Assembly (NCBI GenBank): GCA_039621445.1
Contig: CP154954.1
Coordinates: 41,843,572-41,907,571 of the forward strand
DNA from: Euglena gracilis
Taxonomy: Eukaryota
DNA length: 64,000 nt
Direction of reading: 5' to 3'
The translations under genes were made by a program, and so were the position numbers. The notes beneath the pieces are model-generated. The model did no database searches. It saw only the letters and a list, made by a program, of their open reading frames with translations, and was not told where the DNA came from. This document shows, piece by piece, positions 9,683-45,081 of this stretch (the stretch's first letter is position 1; each line of letters begins with the position of its first letter).

Positions 9683-10182
9683 GGTCCATGGCCATCATTT
9701 TGAGTGGGGGAGTCTGAAATCTTTGATTTGCTGGGGGGTGGGGGGGTTGCGATGGCCACGGACTGACGTGCTGCTGCCGCCTCATCTCCTTCTGCAGCTG
9801 CCGCTGTGACTTCACCTTCCCCAGCTTCAGTTGACTTCTTGGAAGTTCTTTGCAGTTCTTCTTGAAATTCAGAGTTTCTTTGAAATTCATTCTTCATGGA
9901 AGTCCTTTGTTGATATCTGTGTTTCTGTTCTTTGAATTTCTTGTTCCAGTTGAACTCGAGGCGTTGAATTCTTCCTTCAGGAAGTTGAAGTTCCGAAGAA
10001 AGTTCGGTCCACCAGTTGGTAAAAGTATTGGTTCTCGGGAAGGTAGTACTCCTCGAAAAGCAATTCCACTTGAACTCGTAGCAGTAAAACTCTTTCTCCT
10101 TGAGGTCGAAGGGCAGAATTAGGATCAGCCAACTCCGGCAACAAAAAGCAGTAAGAAGCACCCCCCGCGCACGCACAAACAC
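9145..10182 (-). CDS. gag-like ORF1 of copy A
   Basis: First ORF after the left ITR; DGHGPWxTV motif shared with copies B and E. Confidence 0.65.
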   Translation of the reverse strand: MFVRARGVLLTAFCCRSWLILILPFDLKEKEFYCYEFKWNCFSRSTTFPRTNTFTNWWTELSSELQLPEGRIQRLEFNWNKKFKEQKHRYQQRTSMKNEFQRNSEFQEELQRTSKKSTEAGEGEVTAAAAEGDEAAAARQSVAIATPPPPSKSKISDSPTQNDGHGPWTTVVRKRIHRETTITGPTDSTPFSQFLPFQGKKHRLWQPLKGDQKSKGFKSKSRLWQPSFNRAWGPESRLWQPLFKRAVGPGARLWQPVPQPGKIPLGKGMSNFSPSNFRHKPPRSSKPMPNTGHGGLYWEHRRTKEEKFLERRPMEAKQACVPLAARWRQMDREVLEKRPMGAKQA

Positions 10183-10249
10183 CAGAACAGAGCAGCCGGC
10201 AAAGAAAGCAGGACCTCACCATCTCGCAGTGCGGAGCCCGAATGGTCAC
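10128..10249. repeat. Copy A left ITR plus left extension
   Basis: Inverted match to the right ITR; outer part matches the second half of the ICR. Confidence 0.9.
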
Positions 10250-10453
10250 ATTTGAGACAACTTCAGGGAACCCCATACGTTCCAAGCGGCACCATTTTTG
10301 ACCAGAGCAAAAATCAAGCATGTGTCCCAAAGTTTTTTTGGGGGAAAGCCTCGTACTCCCTCGAGGAAAACCGACAAGGGGGGAGGGACACCGAGGGCGA
10401 AACACAAAGACCTTGTGAGGCCATGCCTTGCTCGCCGGCGGTGTTGTTTGGAT

Positions 10454-10788
10454 TGTTTACACGTTGGTTGTCACGACCCGCCGTTGGACGGCCACGGGGC
10501 AGCTCATACTGCTTGCCGTGGCACGCCCTCAGACGGGGAACTACACCCAAGGTCCGGCCAACCAGTGTCTCGTCCTTGGGCGCAGTTACGCGCGCCGGTC
10601 GATCCCCGCGGTATGCCCTCTGCCCGTACGGGATCGACCAGGACTCACACGGCGGGACCTTGGTCTCGAACCCACGACCTCCCGCGTGCGAGCCCAGCAC
10701 CTTACCGAATAAGCTACTCGAGCGATACTCGGCTTGGTACTACGCGCCGGCTACCAACCTCCGTAGGATCTCCCGTCTGCCGCACACA
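10454..10788 (-). repeat. TRIM 3' LTR
   Basis: Direct repeat of 11146-11480; preceded immediately by the PPT on the minus strand. Confidence 0.93.
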
Positions 10789-10798
10789 CTCCCCTCCC
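10789..10798 (-). promoter_or_regulatory. Polypurine tract
   Basis: GGGAGGGGAG directly upstream of the 3' LTR. Confidence 0.8.
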
Positions 10799-11127
10799 AA
10801 GAGCCTTACTACACTAGCCCACTGCGTCACTATGGCCGTGGCCCCTGCAGCTCGGGTTATGCCTCACACGGCCCTAGTTGGCTGAGTGCTTCTCACGAGT
10901 ACTGCGTCACCAGGCTGCCGACCCCTGCAGCTCGGGTTTGCTATTGCCGGCAGTTTACGTGTTGTCGACTTCCACGGGCTCTGCCGCCTTGGAGCGTCCC
11001 CCTTTGCATCGGCTTGAGACTTTGGAACGGTGTAGGAGTTTCAGTCGCCCTAGACTCGGCGCGTCCGCCTCCGCCTTCCGGGCGCCGTGGGGTCAGGCTC
11101 TGATTTCCCGGTTCGTGTGGCATTGGA

Positions 11128-11145
11128 CGGGTTCCCCTGCTACCA
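11128..11145 (-). promoter_or_regulatory. Primer-binding site, initiator tRNA-Met-like
   Basis: Minus strand reads TGGTAGCAGGGGAACCCG directly after the LTR; TGGTAGCAG is complementary to the ...CTGCTACCA 3' end of many eukaryotic tRNA-iMet. Confidence 0.8.
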
Positions 11146-11480
11146 TGTTTACACGTTGGTTGTCACCACCCGCCGTTGGACGGCCACGGGGCAGCTCATA
11201 CTGCTTGCCGTGGCACGCCCTCAGGCGGGGAACTACACCCAAGGTCCGGCCAACCAGTGTCTCGTCCTTGGGCGCAGTTACGCGCGCCGGTCGATCCCCG
11301 CGGTATGTCCTCTGCCCGTACGGGATCGACCAGGACTCACACGGCGGGACCTGGGTCTCGAACCCACGACCTCCCGCGTGCGAGCCCAGCACCTTACCGA
11401 ATAAGCTACTCGAGCGATACTCGGCTTGGTACTACGCGCCGGCTACCAACCTCCGTAGGATCTCCCGTCTGCCGCACACA
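11146..11480 (-). repeat. TRIM 5' LTR
   Basis: Direct repeat of 10454-10788; followed immediately by the PBS on the minus strand. Confidence 0.93.
11343..11415 (-). promoter_or_regulatory. tRNA-derived Pol III internal promoter in the 5' LTR (second copy at 10651-10723)
   Basis: A box TAGCTTATTCGG and B box GGTTCGAGACC at tRNA spacing; D and T arms pair, anticodon and acceptor stems are decayed; anticodon position CGC. Confidence 0.8.
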
Positions 11481-12667
11481 ATTGTTTGCTGTGTTGTTTG
11501 GATTGTTTGCTGCGTGACTTCTTGCCCCTTGGGGGGTCCCCCCCCTCTCCCCCCCTGGCCCCCACTCTCTGACCAAGGGCTCTTGAACACACATTTTCTT
11601 TTACAGGTGGGGGGGTCGGGCTCACAAGGTCTTTGTGCTTCGTCCTCGGTGTCCCTTCCTCCCTTGTCGGTTTTCCTCGAGGGAGTACGAGACACCTCGG
11701 GCTCCGCACTTTGCCCTTGTGAGGCCTGATTGTGCACTGAAATTAAGAGGGCCAGGGCATTTTCCAGGGCACCTTGGGCACCAAGTCTTTGATAATGGGC
11801 TGTAAAAGCCTCCACCCCCTCCACTGACCAAATTCACAAACTTCTTGGGCAGAAAGGCCGAATTTTTTGAGTAAACCAACTCCTGCCCCTCTGGTGGAGT
11901 GGGCCCCCCACACCTGGGGGGTTACCCAATGTTTGGCCAAAAAATTTTTTGTGATAGAAGCAATGGTGTCTGCACTTATGGCTCTGAAAGGGGGTTTTAA
12001 TGAAATCAGGAGGAGGCCCCCAGGTCTCACGAATAAACGTGTGGCAGCCACATAACCCATCATTAAATGAAAAGGGCTTATTTGTGGGCACTGGGGTATG
12101 GACACAAATCTTTCCCACTTGTGGAATTTTTGGCCCTTACGTTCAATTTTGATGTAGGGTGCCCTACCCAACACACTGGTGGTTCGTTTGACTTGTGCCA
12201 GGTCGGAAGATCTGTATAAACAGAGGATTCGTGAGCAAAAGATCAGTTGTGTGCGCAATGTACAACTATCAGTGGGCAAAGGGACCTTGCTAGCCACAGG
12301 AGGATTGGGAGTGGATCCCAAAATGCCCCATACTTTTCCAGGTTCTGGTTCCAAAGCCTCTTGTAGGGAGTTAACAGGGTGTGGAATCTCAGCCCACCAA
12401 ACCCAGGAATCAACAGCATAGCACTATATGCATCACGGGCTTGGGCCTTGGAAAATTGGAATAATTGAATTAAAGCGTCAGCCACTTGGTCTGTGGTGGC
12501 TTCAGGGGGGGCACCCCCATGTGTTCCAAAATGACCCACAGAAGTGCAAAAGCACTCTGATAACGCTTTAGGCTGGGGTTTCTCCCCAAGAAACCGTTAA
12601 TGGTCTGAACCTGAATTTGTTTCCCCTCCAAAATTTGCCTGAGCAAATCATGCAAAACAGGGGCCAC
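11432..12667 (-). pseudogene. Tyrosine recombinase of copy B (frameshifted)
   Basis: LYRSSDLA, ERKG, HSTRG, FGQW, FTAHY across ORFs 12470..12667, 12243..12539, 11743..12354, 11432..11824. Confidence 0.9.
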
Positions 12668-18636: not shown

Positions 18637-21600
18637 GAGACACCTCGGGCTCCGCACTTTGCCCTTGCGAGGTCATGCCTTGCTCGCCGGCGGTGTTGTT
18701 TTGATTGTGTGCTGCGTTGGGTTAGGAGTCCCTGCTTAGTGCCTTTTTCCTCGGAGTTGGCTGATTCCTAATTTGCCCTTCGACTCCCAGAAGAAAGGAA
18801 CGTCAAATACCTCATCAATTGAGAAAAGAAGAAGACAATCAATCAATTCAAATTTTCCAGAAAGTCACGCTCGTGCAGAACCTCAAATCAAAAGTTGTTG
18901 AATTTTTTGAAAGAAGTCAATGAAAGATGCAACGTCTAAGAAACACAGCGCTGGAGAACTTCAAGAGGGAGCAGCAGCAGCTGGACAACCTGACGACGCG
19001 GGGGGCCAGCTGGAAGGGGGAGACTCCCCACCAGCATTTATTCAGTCAACAAGGGGGGGACCCTCAGAGGCCCCCTAGGGTATGGCTACCAACCCCATCA
19101 ATATCAAGCAGACCAGAGAGGCCAAACAGGGGCAGTAAGCCCTGTGTGGTATGTGTTCCAACAACAACATGCTCCAGAGAGAGGAGAGTGCATGCACACC
19201 CCCCCAGGAACATTTTGTTTTTCCAAGCGCTCTAGCCCTAGGGGCTCTAGGGGCTGTGAAATGTCCAGCACTCCCTACCCAGCCCCTAAACAATCATCTA
19301 ATTCAGGAAAGAAATTCCATGGAGGAAAAATGGGGAGATACCCCCTGTACCAGAGACTTCAGAAATGTACAAAATGGTAGCAACATGTCAATTGATTGAT
19401 CAACGGAATTCAACCCCCCTGGGTAAATCCCCCAAAGTTGTCCACCCACCCAAAACCCAGAGCCAATCTGGACCTGAACCAGGCAGGAAAAATCCTGTTG
19501 GATAACGAAAATACTGGCTCAATAAAACGAGTTTGTGATTCAGAATCCCAGCATTTAATCCCATGGTTTCTAATTTCGAAACCAGAGGGGGGAACAACCA
19601 AGTGGAGAATGATCAGCGACTGCAGAGAAATAAATCAGCAATTTTAAGTAAAACCTTTCAAGCTGGATCATATCCAGCACATTTTTCCAGTTTTGGAAAA
19701 AGCCCACTGGGCAGCAAAAATAGACCTGAAGGATGCCTATTTCCATATTCCATTAAGTCCTGGCCTAAGGCCAATTTTAAGGCATCAGGTATGGGGGCAG
19801 AGCTGGGAATTTCAAACAGGATGCTTTGGGTTAAATGTAATGCCCCAACTTTCATGTCAGTAATGAAAACATTCGAAAAACTGTGGAGAAAAAGTGACAT
19901 CGAGGTCATTATTTACCTGGACGACATTTTGCTGGTGACCTCCACCCAAAACATTTGAACATTGAACAGAGTTGTCAAAGATTTGCTGAATTCAGGGTTA
20001 AAAATCAATGTGAAAAAGTCTACCCTGCAGCCCACCCAAGTGGTAACCCACCTGGGTATCCAACTAAACTTCCAGGAAGGAAAGCTGCAGGTGCCCCCCC
20101 AGAAAGTCAAAACCATAAAAAAGAAGCTGGGAAAAACCGTGAAAAAGGATTAACTGTCAAAAAGGCAGTTGGCTGCCATTTTGGGTCAAATAAGGTGCAA
20201 TCTATTGGCCCTGCCCTTTTTAAGGGCTTTTACAGACACCCTGGCAATTGGTGGCAAAGTCCACAGCCCCCTGGGACTCAAAACACCCCATTTCCCAGGA
20301 AATCAAGGCCCAATTAAGGGAAATAAAAACTCTATTGGACACCTGGGGGGGCAGACCCTTCCCCCAAAATGCAACCAGGGGGTTGCACTCAGACGGCAGC
20401 ACCCATGCCTGGGGGGGGCTGGACATCCACACAGGAGAAATTGTGCAGGAATTTTGGAGAAAAGGCTGGTCGTGATTATTCGTGCTACCCAAAAATCGCC
20501 CGTTTTTTTTTTAACTTATCCTGCCCAGAAAACCAATGCACACTCCTCATCTATTGTGTATCACCTCCAACGGCAGAAATATCAAAAACGAAACTCTATG
20601 ACCACCGAAATTGGACAACAATATTGAACATAAAGCAAAGCTGCAGACAGAAAGTGACAATGACAATAACAAGTGAAAATGACGTTGTTGCTGACGCCCC
20701 CCCGGTCAATAATTCAACAATTTCGGCCCAGGTTGAAAATGTTTCCCCAGACCAAAGTTTTGATGGTCACCCCCTACTGGTATTCAGCCATCTGGTGCCC
20801 CCAATTAATGAAAATGAAAGTGCCAGGGACCTCCTGCCTGAAAATCACCCCCTACATGGGGTATGTTCACCAATTTAGGGGGGAACAAATGCCACCCCCC
20901 AGGTGGCCCCTGCTTTGCATGATTTTTTCAGGCAAATTTTGGAGGGGAAACAAATTCAGGTTAAGACCATTAAAGATTTACTGGGGATAAACCCCAGTTT
21001 AAAGTGTCATCAGAGTGCTTTTGCACTTCTGTGGGTAATTTTGAAACACATGGGGGTGCCCCCCGCTGAAGCCACCACTGACCAAGTGGCTGACGCTTTT
21101 ATAAAATTATTCCAATTTTCCAAGGCCCAAGCCCGTAATGCATACAGTGCTATGCTTTTGATTCCTGGGTTTGGTGGGCTGAGATTCCACACCCTGTTAA
21201 CCCCCTATAAGAGGCTTTGAACTAAAACCTGGAGAAGTATGGTGCTTTTGGGATCCCCTCCCAGTCCTCCTGTGGCTAGCAAGGTCCCTTTGCCCACTGA
21301 TATTTGTACGTTGCGTACCCAGCTGATTTTTTGCTCACGAATTCTCTGTTTATATCGATCCTCTGACTTGGCACAAGTCAAACGAACCACCAGTGTTTTG
21401 GGTATGGCACCCTACATTTAATTTAAACGTAAAGGCCAAAAGTCTCACAAGTGGGAAAGGGTGGTGTCCATTCCCCAATGCCCACAAATAAGCCCCTTTC
21501 ATTTAATGATGTCTCATGTGGCTGCTACACGTTCATTCGTCAGACCTGGGGGCCCCCTTCTAATTTCTTTAAAACCCCCCCCTTCAGGGCCATAAGTGCA

Positions 21601-30400: not shown

Positions 30401-31046
30401 TGGGCTGCTGCGGGCAAGGTTGGCAGGGGTGTATGGGCCGTGGGGCCGCGGTTGACGGCGCGAAAAGCGCACACGTTTCCGGGAGCAGGTTCCGGCAGCG
30501 TAGCTCGGGCCACGAGAGAGGTCATTTCATCGTGCCCATCCAATCGCATGGTTTGGCCTCCACAACCGGTCGGTCACTGCGGAACGTTTCTGGCTCTTTC
30601 GGCATTCTGTCCTTGACAACACCAGCATTCCAGACACAGTCCATGCTGCATTCCTATGCCACGTGCGACGGTGACTGGGGAGCTGGACCAGGGGGGAGCA
30701 ACATGCATACACATACTCGACACATACTCGAACGCGGCGCACAGGGCGATGGTCTCCTCGATGCCCAGGCGGCCCCCGGGGCGCCAGTTCAGGATCGGCC
30801 CCGAGCCGATCGCCGTCTGCCCCCAACAACCCCGACCTGGCGCAGGGGACTTAGCGGCCCCAGCCACTGGTTGCATTCCCCAACCGCAACTTTTTGGAGA
30901 TGGGACTCCTTCGCAATTTCCCCCATGGGCCCCCGTGCATGTGTCTTGTCTTACGTGAAATCCAATAGTCCAAATAGAAGCGCACCCCCTGCCGCCGGGG
31001 GCGGCGGTCCTCTATAAGCGCACCCGTACTTCTATTAGGGGGGGGG

Positions 31047-31240
<194 letters not shown>

Positions 31241-32926: not shown

Positions 32927-35399
32927 CCCCCAGCCCGGGGGGGGGGGGGGGTTGTGCCTGCCTGGTCATGGATCTAAACGTGCCCAGAGTGGCCTCTTCT
33001 GGGCTTGCGGCGCCAGAAGCAAAACCAACTTCCTTGAGGACAAATTGGAAAATATACACTTGAAAAAAGAGAAATTTGTCTCAACCGCCCCCAGAAAAAA
33101 GAAAAATCTTGGGGAAAATGCAAAAAACCCACAAACACTCTAGAAAACTGCAAATGAATCCTGGAACACACATGCACACACAAAATGCAGATGTGTTTCC
33201 TATGTAGACCCCAATTCCACTCCAAAGGCTTCATATGGCCAAGTATTCCCCCGGAGATGTTCAACTCAACACTTGAAAGGCAACATTGTGCAAATTGCAC
33301 AAACAAAGAAACAACAGATCCATTCTTTCTATCCCAAGCGTGTGCGCACACACACACACACGCGCGCGCGCGCACGCACACACACACACACAGCAGTCGC
33401 AGAGATAGGGAGTCCACCAGCGATGGAGAAGTGGTGCTGCAGCGCCGTCAAGGGCCTTCCCAGCAGGGGCGGCGAAGAAGTTGGGGGCAGTGAGGTAGCG
33501 CCTTCCACCGGGGGATCGAACCATCCCTTCCCCTGTGGCACAGCAGGCCAAGGCGTCAGGCACGCAAAACGGCCAGTGCAGAGGGGGGGGGTTGTCCCAT
33601 AATAACAATATTTCTCCCCAGGGACTGGTATGGGGACTTGTCCCTGAGACTACTCCCAAGGACTTGGGGGAAACGTCGGCAATTCAGGAATTTCCTTAAA
33701 GATGGGGGGGCCTGTGGAAAAAATGCTTGCTGGACCCCCCCCCCCCCCTGGGGGTGGGTCCGGGGGTGAGTTCCAGCTCTAACCACGCAAATCAGTAGTA
33801 TTCTCTCAAACAGCCTTTCCTTCAGACCCAGGGATGAACGGTTACACTTCCACAAGCCAGATCTGAAAAAAGCCAGATCTGTCCCTGCTGTGAGACAGCA
33901 CCCCAGCCAGGAAGAGCTCGATATAAAACTGGTGCCTCTGGTCAAGGAGGGGGGGATTGCCGCCCAAACCATTGCACAGTGGGCCAAATTGACCAAATTT
34001 CAGCCCAACCGAAAATTTGAAATCAGCCAAGAATGCGATTTCGGGCACTTTTCTTTGGTGAATTTTTGGCCAAAGTGCTGAAATTCTCTGGCGTGAAATG
34101 CTGGAGGGACTTTGGGGTTCCAGAGGGCCGGGGGACACGCCTGCAGGGGTGGGCCGGCACGGGGGGTTGCCGGGCCCGGGGGAGGGGGCAACGCTGTCGG
34201 GAGGACCAGGCCCCTTCCCCGCAGTGGGGGGTCGGGTCCCACCGACCACTGCTCCAGCCCAGTTGTGACTCACTCACCGATCACCGCCAAAGAACCCGGG
34301 ACGGCCGTGGTCCTCGTTGTGTCCTCCAACTGAACCGTTGCATGCATCAGCCGGCAGGCCATGGTTCCCATTGCATTTTCATTTTTGAGAACCGGTGCAC
34401 AAAAAAGGGGTGCTTGGATTTAGGGTGAGAGTCAGGGTTTACTCTCCAATGAGACATTTGGTCTCCTGCAATATATGCAATTGGGCAACGGCCAACTAAC
34501 TAATGCTGACACTGGTTCTGTGAGAGATAATGATAGAAAACAGAGAGCTGATAAACACATTTATTGGTTCCTCAAATGGAACATCAAGCCCTGATGACGT
34601 GAAAACGTTAAAGACGGTAATTGAGCACTTGGTATATTTTACAGGAAGGGGACAAAGCATTTGCAAGGCATAAACCACCCACCCTCCCTCTGCACCCTCC
34701 CAGATTCCACCGCAAGCTGCACAAAGGTCACGGATGCTTTCTTGCCGGGCAGGTCAGGCTTCTTTTTACCAACCCCTGTGGGAGGAGGGGCAGGGTTTGA
34801 TACAAGTCCAGGTGGTGGGTTGGACCCCTCCCCCCGTCTAGGAGGAGTGGGGGGCCATCCCCCCACCAAAACAGTGGCATGGTAAAAGTGACTGATTTTC
34901 GGTTCAGTGCGAAGCGCCGAGAAACAATTGACTTCCAAAACGGCAGTCAGTGCCTTTGGGAAAAAATTTATCGAAAATGCAAAAAAAATTCGACGCAATT
35001 GCCGGAAGGAAAACTTTGACCATTTTGGGGTTGGTACCAGGTACCCCCATGGGGTTGGTCTGGATCCCCCTGGCAGATGGGTGGGGGGGTGGGCCGAATC
35101 CCCTGGTCCAGGGAGGAGCAGTGGAGGGGGGGAGCACCCCCCCCCACCTAAATCCTGTACACACTCCTTATGTCGAATGGGGTGCCTGCCCAGCAGGCAC
35201 CCCATCCCCCGAGAGGGGTTCACAGGCATATTTCCCTTGAAAATGGCCATTTTCAGACCCCTGGGTCTATGGCAGCGGGGGTTTGGCATGACACCCACCC
35301 CAAAACCTTGCCCTCCCGGCAGGGCACCCCCTTGTCTGCTCATAGCAGTCTCTCCCACAAGGAGGTGTGACGTTCCCGAAAGAAAAAAGCATTCCAACG

Positions 35400-42835: not shown

Positions 42836-44399
42836 CTTGGCAGATTAAAGGAAGGTGGTGGGGGGTTTGCCTGGGTGCTGTGTTGAGGTCCTGGACAGGG
42901 CTGTACGGGAAAGCCTGGTGGGGGGGATGGGTTGACCCTCTCACAAAGTTCGTTCGGCGCCAAAGGTGTCGAAGGAAAACTTTGACCTAAAGATTGGCGC
43001 CCCCGGAAATATGGGGAGGCCAGGTGGGGGGGGGGGCGGTCGGACCCCCCGCCAGCATGGGGGTGGGGGGGGGGGGGTGGTCGACCCCCCAACACCCATG
43101 GGGTTGCAGGGATTCCCATACAGCCATGGTCCCGACGTACACCATATTGAAGCCTGTGAACTACCCATCAAAAAAAGGTTTCCACTCATTTTCCTGAATT
43201 CCCCCTCCTTCCTGAGTTTTGAGCCCCTCAAAATCTAAATGGCCCACAACTCCGGAATCCCGAGGAGTTGTGGAACTTGGTGCCTTGAATTGCCCATGAA
43301 AACAAGATGTCCAGATCAAAGCTAGCCATTTGGACACCCAGAAAAAGTTATTTTACGATCTTGCTACCAGCTCAGCCCCATTATGTTTGGGAAGACACAA
43401 ATTCCATAAAAAATGCAGCTTTTTTGCAGAGTTGGCATCAATGCAGCACACAGCCAACGTCACATTGGCGTCAATAAGGCAAAAAAAATCAGGGGACCTC
43501 GTAAAGACTTTTGTACCAGTGTGTTGTAAAGACTTATGCACCAGACCACCGCCGCCATAAGCAGCGGTCCGCTACAGTCTGGCAGGCTGTATTTTGGTCA
43601 GGTGCCGACCCCACCCCGAGGGGGGGGGGGGGCGGGGCGAGGTGGGTGCTTTGGACGCGATCACGCAGGTGGGTGCTTTGGAACCCACCTGCGTGATTCT
43701 TTTTGTCATTTTCTTCATGTTTTCTTGCCATCAAAATGGGGGGGGGGTGCACTTGTAGTGGACTGGAGGGTTCGGCAGCAGAGGGTGCGTTTTATTTGGA
43801 CCCTGTGCTTGTTGAGGCCAGACGTTCATTCTCCAATGCCATGTGATGTACTTCTTGGGACCTCCCCTATGTTGGGGGGAACAAGTTTTTCCAAGCTTTA
43901 TTTGTTTACAAAAAAATCCTTTTGTCCTAAAAATTCCTTTTCCAAAACACAAATTGGCAAAGTTTGCAACCCTTGAAAAAACCGATTGCCCCTTTAAAAC
44001 CAACCCTTTTTGGACCGACAAACGACTGAGAGCCACCAAGACCAAAGAAAATGCTTATTGGGGGGGATGTAATGGACATTTACAATCATTCAACGACCAC
44101 TGGCTTGTTGCAAAAAAGTACAAGGTCTCATGGTCAAACAACTCATGCACTTACCATTTTCCAAACCGGATATTTTTCGATTCCAATCCTTGAATTTTGA
44201 AAAGCTTGTGCGAGTCTAGATTTTTGATGAGAGTCTCTCAAAGTGAAAATTGTTCACCTTCAACTCCATATAAAAAGCTTCATGGTTTGTGCTCTCGTTT
44301 GTCCACCAAAAAAGCATCTACATTTTCAATACAAATTAAAATTGAATGGAAAAAAAGATACAAAATGAAGCCCCTGTGGAGGAAGCAGTCATCATCACC

Positions 44400-44755
44400 A
44401 GAGGCTTCTCTTCGGCTGCACCGACATCAACGTCTGTAACTGGGAGTCTGCGAATAACAGGGCCGACGTCGGCCCCCAGCAGGTCCGCCCAGTACGGGTG
44501 GTTTACCGGCACGCGGTGGCGGAAGAAGAAGCCCCGCAGCAGCTGCTGCCGCCGCAGCGTCTCCTCCGGGAACGACGATGCCTTGCCGTACGTCATGCTG
44601 GCCGGGCTGTGGCGCGACATGCTGCGATATCGGTTGCTCACCACTGCAGCGGTACGGTGGGGCAGCAGCGCCGTGACCGTCTTCCAGTCGATCGGTCCAC
44701 TCTGCGATTCCACAGCACTGAGAATGGTCTGGTCCTCCTCCGCCGTGAACGCGTC
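44400..44755 (-). CDS. Host gene exon encoding a Myb/SANT DNA-binding domain (3' boundary approximate)
   Basis: FTAEEDQTILSAVESQSGPIDWKTVTALLPHRTAAVVSNRY at ~44627-44749 fits the Myb repeat consensus. Confidence 0.82.
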
Positions 44756-44811
44756 GGGGCCAGGCTGCCACCCACGAGGGCACCCATATGGTATCCGTGC
44801 GCAGCCTGGGC
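44756..44811 (-). other. Nonconventional intron, 56 bp
   Basis: gcc-CAGGCTGC...GCAGCCTG-gcccc (perfect 8-bp stem); removal resolves the apparent frameshift to FCSY|DAFTAEED. Confidence 0.85.
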
Positions 44812-45081
44812 GTAGCTGCAGAAGACCCGCCGGAAGATGTCACCGACGAGGTGAGTAATACGTTTCTTCTTGCTGCACAGTGTCTGCGCCGTTGGCCACA
44901 GCTTGTCCAGGTCGAGCCAGCCCTCCTCCTGAAGGCAGTCGGCGATGCACCGGACGACGGCCTCGAGGTGGCCCTCCTCCGGGGTGGCGGGGGTGATGTA
45001 GGGGACGGGGGCCAAATATCGCAGTGACTGGGGCTGGGCCAGAGGGTACTCCACCGTTCCTCTTAGGTTCAGCCCATATTC
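44812..45081 (-). CDS. Host Myb/SANT-domain gene, exon (90 codons)
   Basis: EYGLNLRGTVEYPLAQ...IFRRVFCSY, in the frame of ORF 44638..45054. Confidence 0.8.

Follow-up and report, generated by a model that had tools for sequence, protein, structure and literature searches.

The window analysed here, a stretch of 64,000 nucleotides from Euglena gracilis, contains on its minus strand a TRIM-type element with two LTRs, an iMet-like PBS, a PPT and, within each LTR, a sense-strand module with A and B boxes. This element is very probably one copy of a high-copy, non-autonomous TRIM-type family of the Helenus/TRIMp3 kind, in which the A/B-box module of the LTRs is derived from a tRNA. Helenus was defined in 2024 as TRIMs that carry tRNA-derived sequence in their LTRs (Kojima 2024, Biology 13:119, PMC10886601), and the element is therefore a further example of a described group and not a new class; a preliminary description of this DNA, which held that no described family was like it, was wrong on this point.

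Read along the minus strand, which is the sense strand, the element occupies positions 10454-11480 and its 1027 bp divide into 335, 357 and 335. The 5′ LTR (11146-11480, minus strand) and the 3′ LTR (10454-10788, minus strand) are direct repeats of each other, both run from TG to CA, and they are 98.8% identical, with mismatches at four of 335 positions (LTR positions 128, 173, 256 and 314); a divergence of 1.2% indicates a fairly recent insertion. Downstream of the 5′ LTR on the minus strand, and beginning with the first base after it, lies the PBS TGGTAGCAGGGGA (11133-11145), which is of the initiator tRNA-Met type and shares 12 of 13 bases with the start of the PBS that an excerpt of PMC1797187 prints as complementary to human tRNA-Met(i). 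Extended by the neighbouring CA, the PBS pattern has a single occurrence in the window, where 0.03 would be expected by chance. At the other end of the internal domain the PPT GGGAGGGGAG (10789-10798, minus strand), as read from the sequence, abuts the 3′ LTR with its last base. The 357-nt internal domain itself (10789-11145, minus strand) is non-coding and contains an imperfect direct repeat of 38-43 nt (10821-10858 and 10901-10938), and a Pfam scan of the stop-to-stop ORFs across the element returned no match. The 335-bp LTRs, the iMet-like PBS and the PPT named in the preliminary description thus all stand. Queried by blastn with the full element and with its LTR and internal domain separately, the window yielded no second copy and no solo LTR.

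Outside the window the picture is one of abundance. The element or part of it is present in 20 of the 24 listed sequencing runs, and 18 runs contain at least half of 78 sampled words; the 20 element-positive runs come from 16 studies and bear four organism labels, to which a leaf-litter metatranscriptome is added. Copies were aligned from four of these runs (X1, X7, X15 and X19) at a likeness of at least 85%, all records being contigs. Run X1 alone yielded 23,862 contig records on a 1427-nt stretch that includes the flanks, of which 3715 are at least 99% identical, 7712 fall at 95-99%, 9711 at 90-95% and 2724 below 90%, and the aligned records of the other runs number 10 (X7), 7 (X15) and 40 (X19). 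Runs X15 and X19 come from RNA libraries and are represented by contigs. The family is very high-copy, with dispersed copies and tandem arrays not separable from contigs. One contig each in X7 (689 nt) and X19 (661 nt) consists of exactly one LTR plus the internal unit, and such one-period contigs may reflect RNA, DNA, tandem arrays or LTRs collapsed in assembly; the last of these is what a repeated TRIM would be expected to give. Some contigs of X1 leave the match at the LTR end and continue in other sequence (records 7 and 8). Exact patterns for the B-box region and for the A-box and upstream region each retrieved 0 loci from JGI metagenome contigs, and a blastn search of phage records gave no match.

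The surroundings of the element belong to DIRS1-like retroelements, and this raises the question of whether the repeats are part of them. The left flank (10100-10453), which is the insertion target, is terminal, non-coding sequence of a DIRS1-like retroelement, and this terminal region continues in the right flank (11512-11850). Inverted repeats of 73 nt, made of DIRS terminal sequence, frame the element. The left flank recurs without the element at 22236-22131, 27208-27113, 15862-15820 and 18663-18705, and at these four paralogous DIRS-like ends (~22.1, 27.1, 15.8 and 18.7 kb) the flanks are joined and the entire 1027 bp is absent; in run X1, moreover, 272 records that reach 10457-10458 continue as the empty site. 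These empty ends and empty-site records lead us to conclude that the element is an insertion and not DIRS architecture. The place of the element between two DIRS1-like copies and the framing inverted repeats might suggest that its repeats are instead terminal or internal complementary repeats belonging to a DIRS1-like element. This is extremely unlikely in view of the same data and of the PBS and TG..CA LTRs, since DIRS elements rely on a tyrosine recombinase and require neither a tRNA PBS nor LTRs of the TG..CA form.

The insertion left an imperfect site. The candidate TSD, ATTG, has its left copy at 10452-10455, where the last two bases double as the terminal TG of the LTR, and a matching right copy at 11481-11484; if the LTR is taken as complete, the duplicated target shrinks to AT (2 bp). 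A loss of 2 bp in the CACA context after a normal 4-bp duplication could explain the ambiguous ATTG. In addition, a 21-bp target stretch has a second, intact copy at 11491-11511, its first copy being split between 10441-10453 and 11481-11490. This 21-mer is single-copy in the paralogous ends, and the right flank is short of ~70 nt that are found in two paralogues. The want of a clean TSD of 4-6 bp, with a 21-bp duplication and a deletion at the site, would suit a different account in which there is no retroelement at all and a 692-bp segment containing a SINE was duplicated 1.5-fold in tandem; the single copy in the window and the one-period contigs of X7 and X19, which also suit tandem arrays, could be read in the same way. 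We nevertheless regard such a duplication as very unlikely, since the repeats end in TG..CA, an iMet-type PBS and a PPT abut them exactly, the paralogous DIRS ends cleanly lack all 1027 bp, very many copies of the unit occur under several different organism labels, and some X1 contigs pass from the LTR end into other sequence.

The feature that sets this TRIM-type insertion apart is a tRNA-like cassette that begins ~65 nt into each LTR, in sense orientation and on the same strand as the axis from PBS to PPT. In the 5′ LTR it spans 11343-11415 (minus strand, LTR positions 66-138), as placed by a match to Rfam RF00005 and a motif scan, and the motif scan puts its A box at 11408-11397 and its B box at 11364-11354, both on the minus strand. 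The same scan locates the cassette of the 3′ LTR at 10651-10723, with the A box at 10716-10705 and the B box at 10672-10662 (all minus strand) and with one change (C to A) just past the B box. The A box, TAGCTTATTCGG, has the form TAGCT..CGG and covers LTR positions 73-84; the B box, GGTTCGAGACC, is perfect and covers positions 117-127, 44 nt from the A box when measured start to start. A sense-strand tRNA-like cassette with boxes at tRNA spacing, as first noticed in the preliminary description, is therefore present in both LTRs, and within the window the combined A..B pattern occurs only there. The B box alone occurs four times, against 0.43 expected, and the two extra motifs of B-box type, at 33522 and 28631, are unrelated.

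How much of a tRNA the cassette represents can be judged from covariance models. A search of 131 nt across 4227 Rfam families aligned the tRNA model (RF00005) over its full length, model positions 1-71 of 71, at a score of 15.0 bits that falls below the gathering score of 29; the E-value was 0.89, or by hand calculation ~2e-4 for the tRNA family alone. A search of 3 kb with E-values up to 10 listed no tRNA, which is consistent with the 131-nt result because the E-value scales with search length. In the alignment the model is matched in the D-arm and T-arm but not in the acceptor and anticodon stems, which are broken, and the minimum-energy fold of the cassette is a pair of hairpins with no cloverleaf. 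ARAGORN found 0 tRNAs over the whole window, and Rfam reported nothing there at any family's gathering score. A tRNA gene is rejected by the low bit score, the ARAGORN result and the missing cloverleaf. The partial fit to the model, the broken stems and the A and B boxes point instead to a degraded tRNA-derived module of the kind found in the heads of SINEs. A hammerhead-type retrozyme was also considered and is rejected, as the Rfam searches gave no ribozyme match. By analogy with Helenus, for which no complementarity was found between cassette and PBS (PMC10886601), the tRNA-like stretch of the LTR is unlikely to serve as the primer, and we set this idea aside.

Degradation of this kind leaves room for the main rival to a role in transcription. 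On that account the element is an ordinary Pol II TRIM, the cassette is a dead SINE fragment or a tRNA pseudogene carried as a passenger, and the boxes are idle in the synthesis of template RNA; we regard this as possible but doubtful. The weak tRNA match and the broken acceptor and anticodon stems speak for a dead passenger; against it stand a perfect B box, with the A box placed at tRNA spacing and both facing in the sense direction ~65 nt into the LTR, and the persistence of the same boxes in many independent Helenus families (PMC10886601).

Variation among the aligned copies speaks less clearly than the boxes themselves. Among 40 of the 50 rows of the difference table, two positions are listed within the 73-nt stretch of the cassette. 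At 10661 the 3′ LTR of this element alone differs from the letter found in three other runs and in about half of the small depth of X1, and at 10689 and 11381 nearly all of the depth has T where the element has C. The remaining 262 LTR positions contain seven polymorphic sites in the same 40 of 50 rows, and the resulting comparison for the cassette, 0 polymorphic sites against ~2 expected, is not significant (Poisson P ~0.14, 40 of 50 rows). Conservation of the cassette among copies is thus not statistically borne out in those rows, which is a point in favour of a passenger cassette.

A second argument for Pol III was the absence of TTT from the sense strand. The count itself is correct, with 0 TTT in 1027 nt and eight AAA, but it is only marginal for a sequence of this composition. 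Composition-preserving shuffles of the whole element contained 3.9 TTT on average and 2.65% of 2000 were without any (P 0.027); for the non-redundant 692-nt unit the mean was 2.3, and 12% of shuffles had none. Absence of TTTT, the usual length of a vertebrate Pol III terminator, is expected from composition, as shuffles averaged 0.62 occurrences and 58% of 5000 lacked the motif altogether. TTT was present in all 2438 other windows or strands of 1027 nt, whose median T fraction was 0.24 as compared with 0.158 in the element. From the shuffles and this T fraction we conclude that the depletion is real and goes barely beyond the low T content. An idle cassette in a Pol II TRIM gains from a depletion not clearly in excess of composition, and has at the same time to accommodate a sense strand that is in fact free of TTT throughout. 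The first T4 past the element lies in flanking DNA at 10367-10370 (minus strand), 84 nt beyond the 3′ LTR.

Signals of Pol II transcription were sought as well. Neither strand of the LTR contains TATA, AATAAA or ATTAAA, which counts against an ordinary Pol II TRIM. RNA folding adds an asymmetry between the strands: for the LTR the predicted energy is -180.5 kcal/mol in sense (z -7.0, with 0 of 100 shuffles as stable) and -142.4 kcal/mol in antisense (z -3.2), and the RNA of the internal domain has no excess structure over shuffles (z +0.8). As a prediction from a single sequence with no covariation, this asymmetry would fit an LTR that acts as a structured sense RNA. Taken together, the boxes and their orientation, a sense strand free of T runs, an LTR free of Pol II signals and a strongly folded sense RNA make it plausible, with the chances roughly even, that Pol III makes the template RNA.

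In the mechanism that we envision, TFIIIC and Pol III would bind the A and B boxes, and transcription would start at about LTR positions 55-65. The RNA would then span the rest of the 5′ LTR, the PBS, the 357-nt internal domain, the PPT and the 3′ LTR; the proposed read-through of the whole element would be possible because the sense strand is without a T run, and the RNA would end in flanking DNA where the first T4 occurs, which for this copy is 84 nt beyond the element. Reverse transcription would be primed by the host initiator tRNA-Met, with strand transfers through an R-U5-like part of the LTR, and Gag, reverse transcriptase and integrase would be supplied in trans by an autonomous LTR retrotransposon. 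The transcript, at ~1.05 kb, would be long for Pol III, whose weak processivity is remarked on in PMC10886601; according to the same paper, transcription of Helenus by Pol III still lacks validation, so that Pol III use is unproven for the group at large, and both considerations favour the Pol II account. The module itself probably came from a tRNA-derived SINE that entered the LTR of an ancestral TRIM, as has been proposed for the origin of Helenus (PMC10886601).

Several features tie the element to Helenus. In Helenus elements box A (TRGCY, YGG) is conserved, as is box B (GGTTC), and the LTRs enclose both a PBS and a PPT (PMC10886601). The present element is likewise short, non-coding and equipped with LTRs, PBS and PPT; each of its LTRs contains a tRNA-like sequence that has both boxes and is unlikely to be a working tRNA, and its total length of 1027 bp lies within the reported range of 311-1263 bp. 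Known hosts are Pucciniales, some Agaricomycetes, six animal phyla and Selaginella, and the animals include coelacanth, sturgeon and paddlefish, and ostariophysan fishes, with named families such as LTR-11_DR of zebrafish, LTR1_LCh and LTR2_LCh of coelacanth and further families of sturgeon and paddlefish (PMC10886601). The zebrafish family LTR-11_DR, with its tandem arrays and 5575 LTRs, resembles the present one in its high copy number and one-period contigs. TSDs of Helenus measure 4 bp in animals and 5 bp in fungi and the plant (PMC10886601), and the possible 4-bp ATTG duplication would suit the animal families on condition that the LTR's terminal TG is assigned to the target. Two features differ: the PBS is of the iMet type, which has not been reported from any animal family (those of vertebrates are primed by tRNA-His, Leu or Lys, and other animal families by further tRNAs), and the LTR, at 335 bp, exceeds the longest reported one of 323 bp (PMC10886601). 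By comparison with the published descriptions of families, the element is possibly a new Helenus family. Later mentions of Helenus, in the excerpts of PMC12859917 and PMC13570524, merely cite Kojima 2024. We put forward more tentatively, as a combined reading that is rather unlikely to be right in every part, an undescribed, iMet-primed, very high-copy and recently active Helenus lineage with the longest known LTRs, at home in a DIRS-rich and probably very large genome; in this lineage Pol III would transcribe a template of ~1 kb free of T runs and the structured LTR RNA (z -7) would aid RNA stability or packaging.

The design of this element, a TRIM whose LTRs contain an internal Pol III-type promoter module taken from a small RNA gene, is shared with Cassandra. 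In Cassandra the module is of the 5S type (box A, IE and box C), in contrast to the tRNA-type module with A and B boxes described here, and Rfam searches of 3 kb and 131 nt with E-values up to 10 gave no match to 5S rRNA. To our knowledge Cassandra occurs in plants only; the PBS of the present element has the metazoan form. It has been described as a plant TRIM with 5S rRNA-derived LTR sequence (Kalendar et al.; excerpts of PMC7215508 and PMC10853983), and its PBS is also of the iMet type, the site TGGTATCAGAGC forming part of the search pattern in an excerpt of PMC7215508. The same excerpt reports Pol III terminators in Cassandra LTRs, unlike the LTR of the present element, which has no T run. 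Ajax, a TRIM of nemerteans whose LTR includes part of a 5S promoter, follows the same TRIMp3 design and differs in its 5S-derived module, its tRNA-Leu PBS, its 5-bp duplications and its length of 421-434 bp; Helenus, Ajax and Cassandra together make up TRIMp3 (PMC10886601). With the tRNA-derived SINEs, or SINE2, the element has in common a tRNA-like head with A and B boxes and degraded stems, but SINE2 lack LTRs, PBS and PPT and are mobilised by LINEs. A free-standing SINE2, with its tRNA-derived head and a LINE-related or A-rich tail, was rejected, because the head here forms part of a 335-bp LTR and the element has both PBS and PPT; a search of the window found no related SINE copies.

Helenus suggests that the Pol II promoter of an LTR retroelement can be swapped for a SINE-like Pol III promoter, although actual transcription by Pol III is unproven. 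A family that is young and abundant, has kept its boxes intact, is free of T runs and gives hits in RNA libraries would be a practical test case for Pol III, and if the reading as an undescribed lineage is true it would be a good system in which to obtain the first proof of a tRNA-type promoter driving an LTR retroelement. Elements of the Helenus type also inflate predictions of tRNA genes and spread Pol III and TFIIIC binding sites across the genome. The present copy is properly annotated as a Helenus-type TRIM nested in a DIRS1-like element; labels such as tRNA gene, SINE or new class would be wrong.

The autonomous partner for which the preliminary description had suggested a search is absent from the scanned part of the window: of its 87 ORFs (stop to stop, 150 aa or longer), 69 were scanned with Pfam, and none of the 69 has an integrase or other LTR-retrotransposon domain; the only domains found were of the DIRS type. 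These belong to the cluster of DIRS1-like retroelements that makes up the first 28 kb of the window and between two copies of which the element lies. The cluster contains RVT_1 matches with E-values of 6.1e-21, 2.5e-9 and 7.6e-9 (Pfam), together with weak, sub-threshold matches to RNase H and to a Dam-like methyltransferase. For the C-terminal DIRS ORF, Phage_integrase is present in 11-29% of the members of the nearest protein-atlas clusters. The atlas clusters retrieved are most frequent in Chordata, Mucoromycota and Mollusca. A DIRS ORF of 608 aa has 18 homologues, all at or below 61% identity.

The RNA of the sense LTR (11146-11480, minus strand) is predicted to be unusually structured, with a computed fold of -180.5 kcal/mol and a z-score of -7.0; the predicted fold of the antisense LTR strand has a z-score of -3.2, and that of the internal domain a z-score of +0.8. 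Perfect hairpin stems of 10 bp and 7 bp lie 3' of the tRNA-like part in the predicted sense fold. The B-box consensus is also matched beyond the LTR cassettes, at 33522 and 28631 (minus strand). When examined, these two matches showed no A box and no likeness to the LTR cassette, and they are probably chance occurrences or unrelated fragments.

Two contigs, one of 689 nt from sequencing run X7 and one of 661 nt from run X19, a leaf-litter metatranscriptome, each correspond to exactly one period of LTR plus internal domain (on 10461-11150). The X19 variant is missing 29 nt of the internal domain (10940-10968). This domain also carries an imperfect direct repeat of 38-43 nt, spaced 80 nt apart (10821-10858 and 10901-10938).

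The junction of the element is untidy for an insertion made by an integrase. Target sequence is duplicated over 21 bp at the insertion site (10441-10453 and 11481-11511), the LTR end and the target share five identical nucleotides (TGTTT), and the site itself (about 11514) is without approximately 70 nt that are present in two paralogous DIRS ends. At least four DIRS1-like retroelement copies are clustered, on both strands, between 5300 and 27100. These copies have matches to reverse transcriptase, together with weak matches to RNase H and a Dam-like methyltransferase, and their C-terminal ORF is tyrosine-recombinase-like; the majority are disrupted by frameshifts. Across the stretch of element and flanks compared with the sequencing runs, it is the DIRS1-like terminal sequence that has the deepest coverage in run X1, by a wide margin.

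The sole non-transposon protein domain among the 69 scanned ORFs of the window, matched at E = 2.2e-6 by an ORF at 44336-44839 on the minus strand, is PF00249, a Myb-like DNA-binding domain. Long CA/TG dinucleotide microsatellites occupy about 31000-31200 and 33100-33450, where they appear as His-Thr and Cys-Val runs in translated ORFs, and the window is rich throughout in G, C and T homopolymers.
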